Source of the DNA: an uncultured Rhodospirillales bacterium
GTDB lineage: Bacteria > Pseudomonadota > Alphaproteobacteria > CACIAM-22H2
Reading direction: 5' to 3'
Length of the DNA: 64,000 nt
Assembly (NCBI GenBank): GCA_937926175.1
Contig: CALANV010000058.1
Coordinates: 47,544-111,543 of the forward strand
Shown: piece after piece, positions 736 through 47,259 of the stretch
Layout: the number at the start of each line of letters is the position of its first letter
Numbering within the stretch: the first letter of the stretch is position 1
Position numbers and translations under genes: made by a program
The notes under the pieces: model-generated
The model's database searches: none
Seen by the model: only the letters and a program-made list of their open reading frames with translations
Told to the model about the DNA's origin: nothing

Positions 736-1770
736 TCAGCGCTTGACCATCCGCTCCGCCGCCGGCGGCAGGAACTGTGCGGTGAAGACCTGCTCCGCCG
801 GAACCTTCCGGTCGAGGCCGAAGCCTTCGCTGACGAGGTCGATGTTCTGCTTCAGCCGTTCGACGTTCACGCCGCCCAGGCCTTCGCGCTTCACCTCGTC
901 GGTGAGGATGCTGGTGGCGATCGCCATCTCGAGGCGTTCGAGCTCGAGCGCTTCGTTGAGCAGCGGATCACGCTTCTTGATCGCGGCGATCGCGGCCTTG
1001 GGGTCGGCGATCGTGTCCTGGATGCCGCGGATCGTCGCGCGCACGAAGCCCTGCACGGCCTTGGGATTGTCCTTGAGCAGGGTAGGCGACGCGATGACGG
1101 CGTTGGAGTAGAGATCGACGCCGAGGTCCTTGTACATGAAGGTCTGGATGTTCTGCTCCGGGACGCCCAGGCCCTTGAGGGCGAGGATCGCCGTGAAGCT
1201 GAAGCCGGAGATCGCGTCGGTCTCGCCGCGCGCCAGCATCGGCTCGCGCAGCTGCGGGGCGACATTCGACCACTCCACCTTGGTTGCGTCGAAGCCGTTG
1301 ACCTTGGCGAAGATCGGGAACAGCCGGAACGGCGTGTCGAAGGACGGCGCCGCCGCCTTCTTGCCGACGAGGTCGGCGGGCTTGCTGATGCCCTTGTTCT
1401 TGAGCGTGATGATCGAGAACGGTGCCTGGTTGTAGACCATCAACACCGCCGGGATTTCCTTGCCGGGGTTCTTCGCGTTGAACTCGATCAGCGCGTTGAT
1501 GTCGCCGAAACCGATGTCGTAGGCGCCGCTCACCACGCGGTTCACTGTATCGGAGGAGCCGCGGCCGGCATCGATCGCCGTGACGTTCAGCCCCTCGGCC
1601 GCGTAGTAGCCCTTCTCCTGCGCGAGGAAGAACGGCGCCTGCGGTCCCTGCACCACGAAATCGAGCGTGAACTTGATGGGCGTCTGCGCGGCCGACGGCA
1701 TCGCACCGAGCGCGAGAGTGAAGCCCGCCGCCACCACGGCCGCAGTCCATGATGTCCGCATATTCAGCAT
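736..1770 (-). CDS. ABC transporter substrate-binding protein (NMT1/THI5-like, SsuA/TauA family)
   Basis: ORF 736..1869; likely start MLNMRTSWTAAVVAAGFTLALGAMPSAAQ (signal peptide) at 1770. Sits in an operon with the ATPase at 1-725. Confidence 0.8.
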   Translation of the reverse strand: MLNMRTSWTAAVVAAGFTLALGAMPSAAQTPIKFTLDFVVQGPQAPFFLAQEKGYYAAEGLNVTAIDAGRGSSDTVNRVVSGAYDIGFGDINALIEFNAKNPGKEIPAVLMVYNQAPFSIITLKNKGISKPADLVGKKAAAPSFDTPFRLFPIFAKVNGFDATKVEWSNVAPQLREPMLARGETDAISGFSFTAILALKGLGVPEQNIQTFMYKDLGVDLYSNAVIASPTLLKDNPKAVQGFVRATIRGIQDTIADPKAAIAAIKKRDPLLNEALELERLEMAIATSILTDEVKREGLGGVNVERLKQNIDLVSEGFGLDRKVPAEQVFTAQFLPPAAERMVKR

Positions 1771-1975
1771 GAGAAGGTCCCCATTGATTGCCTGACGCCT
1801 CGGCGTGCGCCGAGCCCCTGTCGCAAAGCCTCGCCGCCGATTGTCGCGACTCTTGCAAGCAAGCGGCATGCCGGACTGTGGTCGAACGCCTTGGCGGAGT
1901 CAACGTCGCCGAACGAGTCGGCGAGGGGGCGGTATTCCTTGCCGGACGGCGGTGGCCCGTCTATGTTCCGGCACC

Positions 1976-2494
1976 ATGCCGAAGCTGAAGGTTACCGAGC
2001 TCGACCACCTCGATGCGCCGGCGTTCATGGCCGCCTTGGGCCATGTCTTCGAGCACGCGCCGTGGGTCGCGATGCGGGCGGCGGCGCGCCGGCCGTTCGG
2101 CACGCGGGCGGCATTGCATCGCGCCATGATGCAGGTGGTGCAGGAGGCGAGCGAGGCGGAGCAGCTGGAACTCCTGCGCGGCCATCCGGAGCTTGCCGGC
2201 AAGGCGGCGCAAGCAGGCGATCTGACGGCCGATTCGGCGCGGGAGCAGGCGGGTGCCGGGCTGGATCGCCTGACGCCCGCGGAGTATGCGCGATTTCACG
2301 AACTCAACGACGCCTATCGCACCAAGTTCGGCTTCCCGTTCATCATGGCCGTGAAGGGCCGGACGAAGGACGAAATCCTGGCCGCTTTCGCGGCACGGCT
2401 CGACAACGACCGCGCGACGGAATTCGCGACCGCGCTCGAGCAGGTCGGCCGGATCGCCGCCTTCCGGCTTGCGGATCTGGTCGACGACTCGTGA
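1976..2494 (+). CDS. uraD: 2-oxo-4-hydroxy-4-carboxy-5-ureidoimidazoline (OHCU) decarboxylase
   Basis: [30 protein letters not shown]...GHPEL...[14 protein letters not shown] matches the OHCU decarboxylase family. ATG at 1976. Confidence 0.85.
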
Positions 2495-2513
2495 CGACCT
2501 GGAGGCAAACGCG

Positions 2514-2864
2514 ATGGGACGACTGACGACGCATGTCCTCGACACCGCGCGCGGCGTGCCGGCCGCCGGCATGTCCATCGAGCTCTTCTCGCTGGAGGGA
2601 ACGCGCACGCGGCTCAAATCCGTCGTGACGAACAAGGACGGGCGCACCGATGCACCGCTCCTCGAGGGCGACGCCCTCAAGGCCGGCCGATACGAACTGG
2701 TGTTCGCGGTCGCGGCCTATTTCCGCGCCGCGGGCCTGAATCTCGCCGACCCACCGTTCCTCGACGAGGTGCCGGTGCGGTTCGCGATCGCCGACCCCGC
2801 GGCGCACTACCACGTGCCGTTGCTCGCCTCACCATGGTCCTACACGACCTATCGGGGGAGCTAG
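2514..2864 (+). CDS. uraH: 5-hydroxyisourate hydrolase (transthyretin-like)
   Basis: [25 protein letters not shown]... with the C-terminal YRGS tetrapeptide diagnostic of HIU hydrolases. Confidence 0.9.
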
Positions 2865-2936
2865 AAGCCCTTGCATCCGTTCGGCCGGGCTGCGTGCTAG
2901 ACTTGCCGGGCCCTATCTGTTTGAAGCGAGTACGTC

Positions 2937-4355
2937 GTGGCCCCTGTCCGTTTCCTGCTCAACGGGACGCCGCGGACCGAGGATCGGGTTCCGCCGACGA
3001 CCACCGTTCTCGATTATCTGCGCACCGTCGCCCGTCTGACCGGCGTGAAGGAGGGGTGCGCGGAAGGCGACTGCGGCGCCTGCACGATCGTGCTCGGCCG
3101 GGCCGAGGGCGGCCGCATGCACTACCGCGCGGTGAATTCGTGCCTGATGATGCTGCCGCAGCTCGACGGCGCCGCCGTTCTCACCGTCGAGGGGCTTGCC
3201 CCGCCGGACGGCCCGCTCCATCCGGTCCAGCAGGCGATGATCGAAAGTGACGCGACCCAGTGCGGTTTCTGCACGCCCGGCTTCGTCATGTCGATCTTTG
3301 CCCTCGCGCAGGAAGACGCGCCGATGAGCGAGGACGACATTCACGAGGCGCTCGCGGGCAATCTCTGCCGGTGCACGGGCTATCGGTCGATCGTGGCGGC
3401 ATGCCGGCGCGTGGCCGGCCGCACCGAGGCACCCCGCATCGATGTCGCCGCCGTTCCGGCATCGCCGCGCTGCACACGCTATGAAGTCGACGGCCAGCGT
3501 TTCCTCGCGCCCGAGTCGCTCGACGAGCTGCTGGCCTTGCGCGCCGCGCATCCCGAAGCGTTGCTGCTCGCCGGCGGCACCGATCTCGGCCTTCTGGTCA
3601 GCAAGGAACGGCGCAAGCTGCCGCTCGTGATCGCCACGGCGAACGTGCCGGCGCTGCGGCGCATCGAACACGGTCCGGATTCGCTCATCCTCGGCGCCGC
3701 CGTGACCTATACCGAGGCGCTGCCGCATCTCGAAGCCGCGTTTCCCGCGTTCGCCCGGCTGGTGCGGCGGATCGGCTCGCGGCAGATCCGCAATCTCGGC
3801 ACGCTCGGCGGCAATCTCGGCACCGCATCGCCGATCGGCGACACGCTTCCCTGCCTGGTGGCGCTGGGGGCGGAGGTCCTGCTGCGGTCGCAGATCGGCG
3901 CACGGACCGTGCCGATCGAGGACTTCCTGCTGGGCTATCGCAAGACGGCGCTGCAGCCGACCGAGATCATCGAGGCGATTCGCATCCCGCGGCTCGCACC
4001 CGGCCAGCGGCTGTTCGCCTACAAGCTGTCGAAGCGTTTCGATCAGGACATCTCCTCGGTCGCCGCGGCATACCGGCTGACGGTCGAGGACGGCATCGTT
4101 CGCGAGTTGCGCGCCGCCTATGGCGGCATGGCGGACCGGGTGAAGCGGGCCCGCGCGGTCGAGGCGGCGCTCGTCGGCCGGCCCTGGACCGCGGCGACGC
4201 TGGCCGAGATCGATCGGGCGGTGGCCGAGGACTTCACGCCCCTCAGCGATCATCGTGCCGGTGCCGCGTACCGGCTGCGTGCGGCCGCAAATCTTCTGCG
4301 CCGCCTGCAGCTCGAAAGCACCGGTGCGGCGCTGTCGCGCTTGGAGGCCCTATGA
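2937..4355 (+). CDS. xdhA: xanthine dehydrogenase small subunit (2Fe-2S + FAD-binding)
   Basis: N-terminal ferredoxin-like CxxGxCGAC...C motif (GCAEGDCGACTIV), CRCTGY, FAD-binding domain. GTG start. Overlaps xdhB start. Confidence 0.9.
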   Translation: MAPVRFLLNGTPRTEDRVPPTTTVLDYLRTVARLTGVKEGCAEGDCGACTIVLGRAEGGRMHYRAVNSCLMMLPQLDGAAVLTVEGLAPPDGPLHPVQQAMIESDATQCGFCTPGFVMSIFALAQEDAPMSEDDIHEALAGNLCRCTGYRSIVAACRRVAGRTEAPRIDVAAVPASPRCTRYEVDGQRFLAPESLDELLALRAAHPEALLLAGGTDLGLLVSKERRKLPLVIATANVPALRRIEHGPDSLILGAAVTYTEALPHLEAAFPAFARLVRRIGSRQIRNLGTLGGNLGTASPIGDTLPCLVALGAEVLLRSQIGARTVPIEDFLLGYRKTALQPTEIIEAIRIPRLAPGQRLFAYKLSKRFDQDISSVAAAYRLTVEDGIVRELRAAYGGMADRVKRARAVEAALVGRPWTAATLAEIDRAVAEDFTPLSDHRAGAAYRLRAAANLLRRLQLESTGAALSRLEAL

Positions 4356-18307: not shown

Positions 18308-18457
18308 AGACGCCGTTCCATCCACCGAACCGGCGCCGGCCTTGAGTCCGGCCGACGAGTCAATGCGTCATCCCGTCTGACGCGACCGGCGCCGCGCCCG
18401 TTCGCGGGACGGGTGGGACACTTGGGACAGCTCGCACGAACAGGGCCACTCCAAATG

Positions 18458-23619: not shown

Positions 23620-23860
23620 GGGCTCTCCTGGGCGATGCGACCATGAAAGAATACGCGCTCCGCTTGCGGAACGCGCGCACGGCGAACGGCGTGCCGCTAC
23701 GGTTTAGGGCGATCGGGCAAATCTGACAACTGCATGGTCGGTGCGGCTGATGGTTCCGCCGGCGCATGGCCGGCGGACGTACGTGGCAGGCAGGTCGGCG
23801 CAGGCCCGGGTGGGACGCAACCTTGAAGTCCCGTACGGCCGCCGTTTATCTAGGGGCCGG

Positions 23861-23908
23861 CGCGGGGACGACCCCGCGTTCCGTTCTTTGCGGCAGGGAC
23901 GACCCTGC
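23861..23908 (+). promoter_or_regulatory. guanidine-II (mini-ykkC) riboswitch: two hairpins with ACGA tetraloops
   Basis: Hairpin 1 CGCGGGG-ACGA-CCCCGCG (23861-23878), a 14-nt linker, hairpin 2 GCAGGG-ACGA-CCCTGC (23893-23908). About 20 nt upstream of the sugE SD and TTG start. Confidence 0.8.
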
Positions 23909-31140: not shown

Positions 31141-31860
31141 ATGAGGCAGCCCTGGACGGCGACCGTGCTGTCGATTTTCCCCGACATGTTTCCGGGGCCG
31201 CTCGGTTATTCGCTGGCCGGCCGCGCGCTCGAGAACGGCGTGTGGAAGCTGATCGCCATCGACATCCGTGACTTCGCGACCGATCGGCATCGCAGCGTGG
31301 ACGACGCGCCGTTCGGCGGCGGACCCGGCATGGTGATGCGGCCCGACGTCGTCGATGATGCGCTGGCGGCGGCGTTCGAGCGCGCGCCCGCGGGCGCGCC
31401 GGCCATTTATCTGACGCCGCGCGGGCGATTGCTCAATCAGGCCCGCGTGCGCGAGCTGGCGGCAGGACCGGGCGTCACGCTGCTGTGCGGACGCTTCGAG
31501 GGCGTCGACCAGCGCGTGATCGAGGCGCGGAACCTTGAGGAGATCTCGCTCGGCGACTTCGTGCTCTCGGGCGGCGAGCCGGCTGCGCTGACGCTGATCG
31601 ACGCCTGCGTGCGGCTCCTGCCGGGCGTCGTCGGCGAGGCGGGCTCGCTCGAGGAGGAAAGCTTCGAGCGGGACCTGCTCGAATATCCGCACTACACGCG
31701 CCCCCAGGTGTGGCAGGGGCGCCCGGTGCCCGAGGTCCTCGTTTCCGGTCACCACGAAAAGATCCGCGCTTGGCGTCTGGCCGAGGCCGAGCGCATCACG
31801 CGCGAACGGCGGCCCGATCTTTGGGCCCGCTATCAGGCCCGGACGCACATGCCGCATTGA
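31141..31860 (+). CDS. trmD: tRNA (guanine37-N1)-methyltransferase
   Basis: [30 protein letters not shown]...TPRGRLL...[10 protein letters not shown]. Confidence 0.9.
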
Positions 31861-44541: not shown

Positions 44542-45565
44542 CGTGCTCGGCAACTTCTTCGAGGACTTCCGTATCGGACAGAAGTTCCGGCACGCCAGTC
44601 CCCGCACCGTCACGACCGGCGATGTAGCGCTCTACACCGCGCTGACCGGCAGCCGCTTCGCCGTCAATTCCTCGACCGCGTTCGCGCGCATGATCGGGTT
44701 CGCCGATGCGCCCGTCGACGATTTGCTCGTCTTCCACATCGTCTTCGGCAAGACGGTACCGGACATCTCTTTCAACGCGGTCGCCAATCTCGGCTATGCC
44801 GAGCTGCGCTTCGGGGTGCCGGTCCATCCGGGCGATACGCTCGCCGCCGAATCCGAGGTGATCGGCCTCAAGCCGACATCGGACGGTCGTAGCGGGATTG
44901 TCTGGGTCCGGAGCCGCGGCATCAATCAGCGCGGCGAGATGGTCGTCGAGTTCGTGCGGTGGGTCATGGTGATGTGCCGCGCGCCCGGCCCGCGCGCATC
45001 GGCGGACGCGGTGGTGCCCGTGCTCGCCGAGGCCGTCGCCGTGCAGGACCTGATCGTGCCGGCGCTGGATCTGCGGGGCTACGATTTCGAGCTTGCCGGG
45101 GATACGCGGCGCTGGGCCGACTACGCGCCCGGCATGCGTCTCGATCACGTCATCGGGACGACCGTCGAGGACGCCGAGCATCAGCTCGCCACGCGCCTCT
45201 ATCAGAACACGGCGCGCGTTCATTTCGACGCCATCTTTGCCGCGGCGGGGCGTTTCGGCCGCCGTCTTGTGTATGGCGGCCACGTCATCAGTCTGGCGCG
45301 CGCCGCCTCGTTCAACGGCCTCGCCAATGCGTTTCGCATCGCGGCGATCAACGGCGGGCGCCACGCCGCGCCGGTCATGGCGGGCGACACGGTCTATGCC
45401 TGGACCGAGGTTCTGGATCGCCTCGATCTGCCGACGCGCACCGATCTGGGCGCGCTGCGCCTGCGCACGATCGCGACCAAGAACCAGCCTTGCGCCGATT
45501 TTCCGCCGCCGGATCATCCGGCCGTCGTTCTCGATCTCGACTACACGGTGCTCGTTCCGCGCTGA
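44542..45565 (+). CDS. MaoC-family double-hotdog hydratase (mesaconyl-CoA / itaconyl-CoA hydratase-like)
   Basis: (V)LGNFFEDFRIGQKFRHASPRTVTTGDVALYTALTG... Two hotdog halves, 341 aa. GTG start with SD AAAGGGAGAGAAG. Confidence 0.75.
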
Positions 45566-45752
45566 ACGCCAGCCGTAGGATCAAGGCGTCGACGATTCCA
45601 CCAAATATTGTTTGCGCGGCGCGAGTCCGCCGTGATAGGGAACGCGCGTCAGGTGTGCTGGACCGAGCACGAACACCGACACATCGACGGGTCATCCTGA
45701 CGCGAGGCCCGCTGCCGTCCGTCCGGGCGGGACGGACGGATCCTGCTTTCAA

Positions 45753-45791
45753 GCACCGGCGATGACGTCATCGCCGGTGCGGCTGTTTTTG
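45753..45791 (+). terminator. Rho-independent terminator: 28-nt perfect palindrome followed by a T-run
   Basis: GCACCGGCGATGACGTCATCGCCGGTGC-ggctgTTTTTg. Confidence 0.6.
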
Positions 45792-46821
45792 CGCCATGTC
45801 GTTCCGACGATGCGGGACCCGGAAATAAGAGAGGCGTCAGGCGCGCTGGACCGAGATCCGACGCTTAACGTGTTCGGGCGGAACACGACCTGACGCCTCG
45901 GAGCGCCGGGGCACGAAACCCATGCGACTCCCTGGCCTCGCGACAGCTCGGGCGTACCTTCGTCATGCGGTGCGACGTCGCGGCCGATACGTCGCCCGAT
46001 GCACGACGGCGGGACCGGGAGATCCCGAGCCCGAGGGAGAAGCGCCAGACCCTGCCGTCCCGCACTGCCGACCGGCTGGTCTCCGGCAACGATTGGTACA
46101 ATCGCCGCGGAAGGACCCGATGCGACGGGCGCAGCATCCGGTACCGCGCCTCATGCATCGCCCGGCGATCCGCCTTGCGGCGAATCACCGGCCGTCCGGA
46201 CGCGTGCGGCTGGGGCGAGCCTGTTGCCGGCTCCCGCCCGACAAACGGCGCCATCCGGCAACGGCGCCTCATGCCGGGCCGACGGTGCGCCCGCACCGGA
46301 TCCGTTCGGACCCGGGAGCGCGATCCGCCCCGGAAAGGTCGTTCCGCCTGCGTCCGCCGACCGTCTCCCGTGCGGGACACGGCGCCCTTGGCCCAGGGCC
46401 TTCGGGCGGCGCCGCGGAGCCTTGCATGCCTTTCCGCGCTTTCGCGTGCCGTGGAAATGCTCGCAGAAATTTTTTCGCCGATAAACAATAAAAGCGCCGG
46501 GCGCTGAAAATTTCTGTTGATAGAATCCTTAATTCCACACAATTCATCCCCGCATTATCCCCGGAATTCTCCACAGTTTGCGGACGAACCCGTTCGGGGC
46601 GTGGCCATGACCAAATCGTGGGCACCGGCCGGTCCGGGTTCGCGCCCGATTCAAGTGAGGTCGGTGCCGCGCGAAGGCTATCGGCCCGGCATTTCGCACT
46701 TGCGTCCGGCAACGTTGACGGGACGGGGGCACAGGGTCTAAATCAGCGGCGCATCACAACAATTCCGCCGGGGCGGTGCTTGTTTGCGCCGCGCGACCGG
46801 TTCCAAGCCACTTGAGGCGAC

Positions 46822-47259
46822 ATGCCGAACGATCCGTCGATGGCGCGCGGAAGCCCACATCCGACTCGATCCGCGCGACCGCTTTCGCCGCATATTCAGA
46901 TCTACCGTCCGCAGCTCACGTCCGTCCTTTCCATCAGCCACCGTATCACCGGTCTCGTGCTGGTGGTCGGAACGCTGATGCTGGTGTGTTGGCTGATCGC
47001 CGCTGCGACCGGACCCGAAGCGTTTGCCGGGGTACAGGCCTTTCTCGGATCGTGGATCGGCCTGGTGCTGCTGTTCGGCTGGAGCGTTGCGCTGTTCTAC
47101 CATCTTAGCAACGGCATCCGGCATCTGTTCTGGGATGCGGGCTACGGCTACGAGATCGCGACGGCCTATCGCTCGGGCTGGGCGGTCGTGGGCGCTACCG
47201 TGGTGCTGACGCTGCTCGCCTGGGGCGTCGGGCTTGCGGTTCTGGGGGGGCGGCCATGA
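46822..47259 (+). CDS. sdhC: succinate dehydrogenase cytochrome b556 subunit
   Basis: RPLSPHIQIYRPQLTSVLSISHRITG. 3 TM. Confidence 0.9.
   Translation: MPNDPSMARGSPHPTRSARPLSPHIQIYRPQLTSVLSISHRITGLVLVVGTLMLVCWLIAAATGPEAFAGVQAFLGSWIGLVLLFGWSVALFYHLSNGIRHLFWDAGYGYEIATAYRSGWAVVGATVVLTLLAWGVGLAVLGGRP

Follow-up and report, generated by a model that had tools for sequence, protein, structure and literature searches.

A candidate large structured RNA and a putative antisense small RNA in the spacer upstream of sdhC of an uncultured Rhodospirillales bacterium

A 64,000-nucleotide stretch of DNA from an uncultured Rhodospirillales bacterium (contig CALANV010000058.1, positions 47,544 to 111,543; hereafter the window, in whose numbering all coordinates are given) contains a spacer at 45566-46821, lying between a MaoC/mesaconyl-CoA hydratase-like gene (mch, 44543-45565) and sdhC (46822-47259), which is followed by sdhD, sdhA and sdhB. 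An earlier note on this DNA had seen no credible open reading frame (ORF) in the spacer, had described two short repeats, several palindromes and a terminator, and had offered small RNAs, mobile repeats, a structured sdhC leader or a decayed gene as explanations. The question that this locus raises is what such a spacer contains, and on which strand. Our comparisons with related loci suggest that it most likely holds a previously undescribed large RNA, together with a small antisense partner, next to the sdhC promoter. The whole model in its main lines, two non-coding RNA genes plus the promoter of sdhCDAB, is the account that we favour, although we do not regard it as secure.

The absence of a credible protein gene was borne out. 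Four candidate ORFs in the spacer had no Pfam match. Public gene callers annotate a 189-amino-acid ‘hypothetical protein’ at 45922-46491 (+) in identical metagenome contigs, and the same protein stands in NCBI, but a search of this ORF against 5.8 billion proteins returned only itself; the call lies over the structured minus-strand RNA described below and is almost certainly spurious, a practical point for anyone using the public annotation. When the open frames of 54 related mch-sdhC spacers were compared with the window spacer, only noise was obtained. An all-against-all comparison of the open frames of 14 homologous spacers found all frames of both strands to be similar, the result that homology at the DNA level would give.

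The pattern of substitution points the same way. The nearest relative found, an Alphaproteobacteria assembly (L091), is fully syntenic with the window and 91.3% identical over 16.4 kb; ten further loci (L001-L010) come from the same strain, are 100% identical and were uninformative for comparison. Between the window and L091 spacers there are five 1-nt indels, and the substitutions fall 14, 7 and 19 by phase, the fewest being in the GC-richest phase, which would be codon position 3. Across seven closely related family pairs, 26 of 27 indels are not multiples of three (1-2 nt) and the substitutions have no phase bias. The flanking genes, on the other hand, are 95.5%, 97.1% and 86.5% identical to those of L091 at codon positions 1, 2 and 3, and other intergenic regions are 54-88% identical, except for a 96-nt sdhA-sdhB spacer at 98%. 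The segment 45566-46540 is 92% identical and 46540-46821 is 79% identical, so that non-coding DNA over about 1 kb is better conserved than synonymous sites, for which the third codon positions (86.5%) are the measure. Homologues, a kept frame and third-position bias, by which a protein gene or a recent pseudogene would be recognized, all fail here. The region is very probably conserved, structured and non-coding. All three plus-strand frames are free of stops for about 480 nt (45999-46484), where a rough estimate would put about 8 stops at this composition; the plus strand of an RNA gene, rich in C and poor in T, is the probable cause.

The repeat pair lies where it had been placed: 45646-45667 and 45834-45855 are identical at 20 of 22 positions and differ at two T/C positions. 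Each copy had been described as a stem-loop closed by 8 bp. This holds for the first, in which the stem GCGTCAGG/CCTGACGC is visible in the sequence, whereas a perfect inverted repeat of 11 bp (45831-45841 and 45889-45899) closes the second. The 19-nt core of the repeat occurs exactly twice in the window, both times in this locus, even when up to three mismatches are allowed. A metagenome scan with this core (GTCAGGYGYGCTGGACCGA) returned 69 contigs, about 31 of which form a family; contigs with TGCG or CGTG at the degenerate positions were rejected as unrelated coding matches. The family has two forms of the core, TGTG, which we call type 1, and CGCG preceded by GAGGC, type 2, and 12 contigs carry both, 196-283 nt apart. 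In all contigs of sufficient length, sdhC lies on the same DNA strand 0.9-1.1 kb beyond type 2, or 1.5 kb in L107. Orthologous copies precede sdhC, with order and orientation unchanged, in 21 loci that extend to this gene. The SdhC proteins of the metagenome family contigs are 61-77% identical to that of the window. The left flank is mch in the window lineage only, most relatives having an HpcH/HpaI lyase gene instead; because the left flank varies and sdhC is constant, the elements travel with sdhC. One relative, L101, has a 712-amino-acid minus-strand gene between type 1 and type 2.

Other searches extended the family, and the comparison set came to about 35 related loci from metagenomes and assemblies of uncultured genomes. 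A scan of a genome collection based on Mch found no close relative (best match 69%) and supplied the mch-sdhC linkage, the locus L011 and distant members. When a profile of the spacer was run against 80 genome loci sharing mch, the one match was L011, directly after mch; there CGTCAGGTGTGCTGGACCGA is invariant, as is a hairpin, GTCCGGGCGGGAC, with compensatory changes in its outer stem. With nhmmer, 45831-46585 aligned to 11 other contigs over 750-940 nt (E 1e-16 to 1e-53). A covariance model of type 2, termed R1, found distant copies 0.6-1.6 kb upstream of sdhC in L079, L069, L042, L045 and L095, as well as one at a contig end in L068, and several of the R1-positive assemblies are labelled Rhodospirillales or Rhodospirillaceae. 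No R1 match was found in loci of the Hyphomicrobiales type, in which the mch-sdhC spacers are short or filled with genes. Elsewhere in the window R1 gave two weak matches in gene-dense sequence, at 31384-31452 (+; 25.7 bits, E 0.025) and 18330-18395 (-; 23.4 bits, E 0.084), which are probably due to chance.

This distribution bears directly on two of the explanations offered before. Mobile repeats of the REP (repetitive extragenic palindromic) or MITE (miniature inverted-repeat transposable element) kind would fit the 8-11 bp terminal inverted repeats around each element, and a decayed gene would fit the three open plus-strand frames. However, two copies in 64 kb that sit at orthologous positions in dozens of distant genomes, conserved in place in about 35 loci, give no sign of mobility, and a decayed gene is contradicted by the lack of protein similarity in any frame, by the 1-2-nt indels tolerated despite conservation above that of synonymous sites, and by helices that covary. 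We regard both possibilities as effectively refuted. These features exceed what chance would give, as shown by the 92% identity of 45566-46540 to L091 and by the reappearance of both copies, in the same position, in dozens of distant contigs.

On the plus strand the layout of the family opens at the left with type 1 and its terminator. After 40-130 variable nucleotides comes an A-rich run, itself conserved, which leads into type 2. Conserved sequence then continues for about 600 nt as a GC-rich part and, beyond it, as an AT-rich block. The last part consists of 120-200 nt with little conservation, the sdhC promoter block and a 5' untranslated region (UTR) of about 70 nt. For the long structured part, 13 relatives (66-94% identical) were aligned on the minus strand, and RNAalifold predicted 158 pairs in 26 helices. 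Of the cells in these helices, 97.6% are paired, compared with 93.3% in shuffled controls (0 of 500 reach the observed value) and 40-50% when the partners are slid by 1-3 columns, and 31 pairs are changed on both sides, compared with 19.1 after shuffling (again 0 of 500) and 3-10 after sliding; as the relatives represent few clades, the shuffle test overstates the significance and the slid controls are the safer guide. A separate alignment of the window lineage (the window, L091, L101, L169 and L119), whose sub-lineages are about 58% identical to each other, gave 220 predicted pairs, 45 of them compensatory.

On which strand, then, does the structure lie? The long stretch is C-rich on the plus strand (244 C against 186 G in L103), and the loops CTTGCG and CCCCCGAAGGGG that recur on the plus strand become GCAA (GNRA) and C(UUCG)G tetraloops on the minus strand. 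Loops of the GCAA, GGGA and C(UUCG)G types are obtained only when the minus strand is read, the plus strand giving UUGC, UCCC and CGAA. Among 121 pairs predicted on both strands in the 13 sequences, 91 cells are A·C on the plus strand, that is G·U on the minus strand, against 23 that are G·U on the plus strand, a ratio for which composition alone would predict 1.3. In 22 distinct type-2 sequences, 7 of 7 non-Watson-Crick cells in helix P1 are A·C on the plus strand, and P2 has 41 A·C against 14 G·U. Independent variants (L146; L069, L042, L045 and L068; L095; P3 of group D) are all mismatches on the plus strand and wobbles on the minus strand, and distant type-2 members fold 8-17 kcal/mol better on the minus strand. 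The minimum free energy of 46478-45820 is -379.8 kcal/mol (z -5.8) for the minus strand and -340.3 kcal/mol (z -3.0) for the plus strand, although G-rich strands fold better from composition alone. On the minus strand, moreover, the conserved A-rich run becomes a U-run right after the 11-bp P1, as is typical of an intrinsic terminator. For type 1 the evidence points the other way, to the plus strand, on which it has a canonical terminator and G·U pairs. Taken together, these marks in the DNA indicate that the large structured RNA is probably read from the minus strand.

The main rival here would place both copies and the whole stretch on the plus strand, as a long structured leader or upstream RNA reading toward sdhC, for example a tandem riboswitch-like pair and a long 5' UTR that control sdhCDAB. 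The two copies do have the same DNA orientation, the first is clearly a plus-strand element whose terminator could serve as an attenuator, and the locus is always on the sdhC side in the same orientation. The plus strand also folds better than its shuffles, and the AT-rich block of relatives contains a promoter-like plus-strand site (TTGGCC or TTCTCA, 18 nt, AATAAT). A leader of this kind is nonetheless unlikely, because the non-Watson-Crick cells are A·C on the plus strand in all of P1 and three quarters of P2, the shared helices stand at 91 against 23, the GNRA and UUCG loops exist only on a minus strand whose complement is strongly C-rich, and the two copies are split in L101 by the 712-amino-acid minus-strand gene. 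The position of the sdhC promoter also speaks against it. A block at 46715-46743 (+), TTGACG (46715-46720), 17 nt and CTAAAT (46738-46743), is the sole one kept in all family members between the variable spacer and sdhC (as CGTTGACG-N-GGTCTAAAT), and we infer that it is the promoter of sdhCDAB. Since this block lies downstream of the conserved kilobase, with the poorly conserved 120-200 nt between them, the kilobase would be outside the sdhC leader. A structured leader or riboswitch of sdhCDAB is therefore not supported, the putative promoter being downstream and the pair types placing the structure on the opposite strand.

In the minus-strand model, the large RNA would be about 650 nt long (46478-45820, both ends putative). 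It would start in the AT-rich block near 46478, run head-to-head with sdhCDAB and fold into about 25 helices. A candidate -10 element, TATTGT, lies at 46485-46490 (-), and TATTGT or TATTAT is kept on the minus strand in nearly all members; in L079, TTGATT-N18-CATTGT stands just before the conserved core. The structured core would begin with the 5' strand GGCACGCGAAAGC (46438-46450) of a long-range helix, invariant in the window lineage and present as GCACGCGAAAGCG in the distant L079; the 3' strand of this helix, GCUGUCGCGAGGCC, is at 45934-45947. The helix, which encloses most of the RNA, appears in the consensus of the window lineage and again when the window sequence is folded by itself to minimum energy. 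A hairpin next to the junction, GGAGCCUGGCCGGCUCC, and a conserved AUCUCUGCCCAGGGUGCG block are common to L079 and the L069 group. The 6-3-6 palindrome CGATTGgtaCAATCG at 46090-46104 is present as described but is not the extended -10 element that it was thought to resemble; it is a shortened form of a hairpin of the large RNA, aligning with a longer GCAA-capped hairpin in L101, L169 and L119.

The second repeat copy falls at the other end of this RNA, where it forms the 3' domain, a three-way junction (45831-45899, -) with an 11-bp P1, P2 and P3. P1 and P2 are almost invariant in sequence, and the interior of 47 nt consists of two conserved hairpins. Directly 3' of the junction stem is a U-rich run, UCUUAUUUCC (45821-45830, -), which on the plus strand is an A-rich run in front of type 2. 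All 29 type-2 copies have such a run, distant ones included; its typical form is AAAATAAAAG, or CUUUUAUUUU on the minus strand. We therefore suppose that the large RNA would end here, the 11-bp outer stem followed by the U-run serving both as an intrinsic terminator and as protection of the 3' end. The resemblance to Rho-independent terminators, a GC-rich stem followed by a U-run, is shared with the small RNA, but the ‘loop’ of the junction is 47 nt with two hairpins rather than 3-8 nt, and a standard terminator scan made no call there. The stem and U-run are kept in 29 copies.

Type 1, by contrast, has the form of a small RNA gene on the plus strand, about 180 nt long (45610-45791), with a putative 5' end, a 3' end at a terminator and homologues in 20 loci. 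RNAalifold on 17 type-1 sequences gave 32 pairs, 17 with compensatory changes and many G·U on the plus strand, and the window sequence folds at -91.9 kcal/mol (z -2.8). The element begins with a 5' hairpin, P0 (45617-45632), whose stem covaries (GC in 7 and CG in 6 sequences at one pair, CG in 11 and UA in 4 at another) and is in L113 swapped entirely for a different palindrome. It is followed by the conserved 22-nt segment GCGTCAGGTGTGCTGGACCGAG (45646-45667), the first repeat copy. All type-1 copies have the 19-nt core unchanged, as the search required, but conservation extends to the flanks, which the search pattern did not cover. Next come hairpin P3 (45715-45739), with 7 mostly covarying pairs (for example CG in 10 and UA in 6 sequences), and the terminator at 45753-45791, which would also stop read-through from mch. 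The hairpin had been reported with a 4-nt loop; the loop is in fact the 5-nt GGGCG and is invariant, and an L091 change in this hairpin, A45736G, gives a U·G pair on the plus strand. The palindrome and terminator stood as reported, with a perfect 14+14 palindrome (45753-45780) followed by GGCTGTTTTT and a terminator-like score. In 17 sequences its 12-pair stem covaries and all relatives keep the T-run (TTTTT in the window), as expected of a Rho-independent terminator, while the L091 changes fall within the loop or give G·U (45755, on the plus strand). A candidate -10 element, CAAATA, is at 45602-45607 (+), CAAAAT in relatives; a CAAAAT-N-TGGTTG block is kept in all type-1 copies, and TTGAGC lies 17 nt upstream in groups C and D. 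A conserved AAAACCYAGGTTTTGAGCCAAAAA about 55 nt upstream of the small RNA in the C and D loci may contain the -35 element of its promoter. In L103, L104, L117 and other C and D loci, the end of the HpcH/HpaI gene is followed closely by another conserved block, TTTTCGCAGTTTTCCGCCAACGACGCG, at about 165 nt before type 1. A small peptide encoded in the first element (MCWTE...) was ruled out, its frame and length not being conserved.

The two elements had been taken for two copies of one hairpin. They are paralogues with the same orientation in the DNA that appear to be read from opposite strands, and as RNAs they would therefore be complementary, a reminder that two look-alike ‘hairpin repeats’ can be a sense-antisense pair. 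A duplex of 22 bp would form between 45646-45667 and minus-strand 45855-45834, with U·G pairs at the two positions where the copies differ as T and C. The P3 loops are GGGCG in the small RNA and CGCCC in the large one, and in groups C and D the complementarity extends through most of the junction. For five genomes the predicted duplex has an energy of -91 to -107 kcal/mol, compared with -67 to -72 kcal/mol (standard deviation 5-6.5) for a shuffled small RNA. The idea of a small RNA fits the first element with its hairpin and terminator, whereas the second element is the 3' three-way junction of a large RNA; the spacer had rightly been called non-coding and heavily structured, but the minus-strand RNA of about 650 nt had been missed.

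We propose the following mechanism. The small RNA, encoded just beyond the end of the large RNA and pointing toward it, with its own 5' hairpin and terminator, would act in trans as an antisense RNA on the 3' domain of the large one. The GGGCG and CGCCC loops could begin a kissing contact, and the 22-nt contact would cover the 3' strands of P2 and P1. Pairing would then compete with the junction stem, so that termination could be altered, with read-through, or the 3' end could become open to double-strand-specific cleavage, and the small RNA would thereby set the level of the large RNA. That such pairing is functional is a tentative proposal, for which we put the odds slightly below even. The gene intervening in L101 is an ORF at 919-3057 (-) of that locus, PAS/chemoreceptor-like by appearance, between the small RNA terminator and the junction; it has the orientation of the large RNA, so that any transcript passing the junction would enter it.

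Besides the narrow sampling of clades and the effect of composition on folding mentioned above, several points weigh against this account. Both RNAs are predictions from sequence, from which we infer their production, ends, pairing and function. The promoters of both are poor compared with the consensus, and a promoter scan reports none here; the candidate -10 of the large RNA has no good -35 and the small RNA candidate falls below the threshold of the scan. Intrinsic terminators are not typically branched three-way junctions, and the U-run in the window is a weak one. As the complementarity is an automatic consequence of paralogy and opposite strands, it cannot count as separate evidence that the RNAs pair, and the two copies could instead be paralogous binding sites for one factor. 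Part of the 22-nt segment is, in the small RNA of the window lineage, taken up by an internal stem of 8-9 bp. Finally, L079, L069, L042 and L045 have the junction and no second copy within the DNA fetched, implying that the antisense partner is not universal.

A pair of convergent RNAs also invites comparison with type I toxin-antitoxin loci under antisense control at the 3' end, such as txpA/RatA, bsrG/SR4 and fst/RNAII. The minus-strand RNA would then be the mRNA of a small peptide and the plus-strand RNA an antitoxin acting on its 3' end, as in txpA/RatA or bsrG/SR4. The arrangement is indeed alike: the RNAs are convergent, an adjacent small RNA is complementary to the 3' end or terminator of the longer one, and the loops are complementary and suited to kissing. 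There is also a minus-strand ORF from the ATG at 46547 (MNCVELRILSTEIF..FYCL), whose frame is kept for 22 codons in four window-lineage sequences including L091, L101 and L169. However, the homologous nucleotides are read in another frame in groups C and D (MWRFR...), so that no start or frame is shared between these groups and the window lineage; the ORF ends after 22 to 124 codons, its Shine-Dalgarno spacing is poor, the peptide is not hydrophobic and the ATG lies upstream of the best candidate -10. Further, about 600 nt of covarying structure exceed what an mRNA would need, the long RNA being structured throughout; the locus is single-copy and syntenic with a housekeeping operon; and the small RNA is a nearby trans paralogue that does not overlap its target. 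We consider a toxin-antitoxin locus highly improbable.

The AT-rich block raises a different possibility. At 46533-46575 (strand not assigned) it contains the DnaA-box-like 9-mers AATTCCACA, TTATCCCCG and TTCTCCACA. Relatives have 3-5 such boxes (up to two mismatches) within 60-130 nt, against a background of 0.30 per kb in the window, with a perfect TTATCCACA in L113, L140 and L157, and in L103, L113, L146, L104 and L157 the cluster stands beside a conserved AT-rich CAATAATAATCG block about 660-790 nt after the start of type 2. The conservation might accordingly be of DNA, in that divergent promoters would share a regulatory region bound by DnaA or another protein, or a site for titrating or reactivating DnaA, and the hairpins would be incidental; the near invariance of junction P1 and P2 would agree with this. 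Yet the boxes cover only about 100 nt, and the other 600 nt show compensatory and G·U-compatible changes, for which DNA binding offers no explanation. In the window only one good box is seen (46567-46575, a single mismatch). We therefore find conservation at the DNA level very unlikely as the explanation of the whole. In the two-RNA model the boxes, lying between two divergent promoters, may regulate either of them. A replication origin was considered and rejected: the GC skew, positive on the left, does not switch at 46.5 kb, and the genes to either side are transcribed rightward.

Small RNAs linked to succinate dehydrogenase are known from enterobacteria, where RyhB, Spot 42 and RybB, which are short and encoded elsewhere, act on the translation start of sdhC. 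The present locus resembles them in that a non-coding RNA is genetically linked to succinate dehydrogenase and, in some members, the junction 3' arm and U-run (UGACGCCUCUUUU) are complementary to the sdhC ribosome-binding region (AAAAGAGGCGUCA). This arises because the ribosome-binding region AAAAGAGGCGUCAUG is almost identical to the junction 5' arm (group D and L146; L109, L110, L117, L132 and L146), which makes it complementary over 13 nt to the 3' arm and U-run (group D and L146). Unlike in the enterobacterial cases, the match is partial in the window (UUGAGGCGACAUG; 46808-46826 with 45821-45841) and absent in L101 and L169. We accordingly set aside the idea that the 5' arm mimics the sdhC ribosome-binding site and the 3' arm acts against it, the match not being general across members; the complementarity may be a by-product of a stem resembling a Shine-Dalgarno sequence.

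Large, intricately folded bacterial RNAs are rare, and such size and conservation usually mean catalysis or a ribonucleoprotein machine. OLE, GOLLD, ROOL, HEARO and raiA are each said to have opened a line of work. In size and character the candidate belongs with these large ornate classes of unknown function, among which the smtA ‘Soda Lake’ motif is also counted (PMC11109978, PMC9723947). It shares with them a length of at least 600 nt, the lack of an ORF, many covarying helices, GNRA and UUCG tetraloops, invariant stretches and a narrow range, and like them it came to light through comparison of GC-rich intergenic regions; as a kind, a large ornate RNA of more than 500 nt with covarying multi-helix structure and no ORF describes it. 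It differs from them in having no match to their covariance models, in its alphaproteobacterial, Rhodospirillales-like host, in its fixed head-to-head position with sdhCDAB, in ending with a three-way junction and U-run, and in being accompanied by a small RNA of its own that is complementary to it in part. When 45400-47000 was scanned permissively with the 4227 covariance models of Rfam 15, the best score was 23 bits against a threshold of 43 bits; Rfam 15 had no match in seven other family loci, and no description of such an RNA was found in the literature searched.

The locus may represent a new class, a proposal that we consider about as likely as not or slightly less: an ornate RNA of about 650 nt, restricted to a Rhodospirillales-like group, always lying head-to-head with the sdh operon and ending in a three-way-junction terminator, to which a nearer clade would have added an antisense small RNA derived from a duplicated terminator domain read from the other strand. 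The DnaA cluster could link its synthesis to the replication initiator, and its size and sequence conservation would allow a catalytic or ribonucleoprotein role tied to respiratory complex II. Confidence in any specific function of the large RNA is low, but its fixed position beside sdhCDAB suggests a role tied to complex II expression or to central carbon metabolism. What sets the candidate apart is its neighbour, a core respiratory operon, the predicted antisense small RNA as a built-in genetic handle and the possible link to DnaA, and these together make its function directly testable.

The genes on either side are well defined. The mch gene (44543-45565, +) matches Pfam PF19315 and PF01575, its start being taken from the called genes of identical contigs, and sdhC (46822-47259, +), first of sdhCDAB, matches PF01127 and is present as an exact copy in 69 collection blocks. 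Linkage of mch to sdhCDAB is widespread in Alphaproteobacteria (loci L012-L090), the spacer ranging in length between about 100 nt and 5 kb; it is just 100-280 nt in many Hyphomicrobiales, and in other loci it holds inserted genes. Searches for tRNA and tmRNA found none. The only Rfam match at gathering level in the whole 64-kb window is a Guanidine-II (mini-ykkC) riboswitch at 23860-23907 (+), with 47.1 bits against a threshold of 32 bits.

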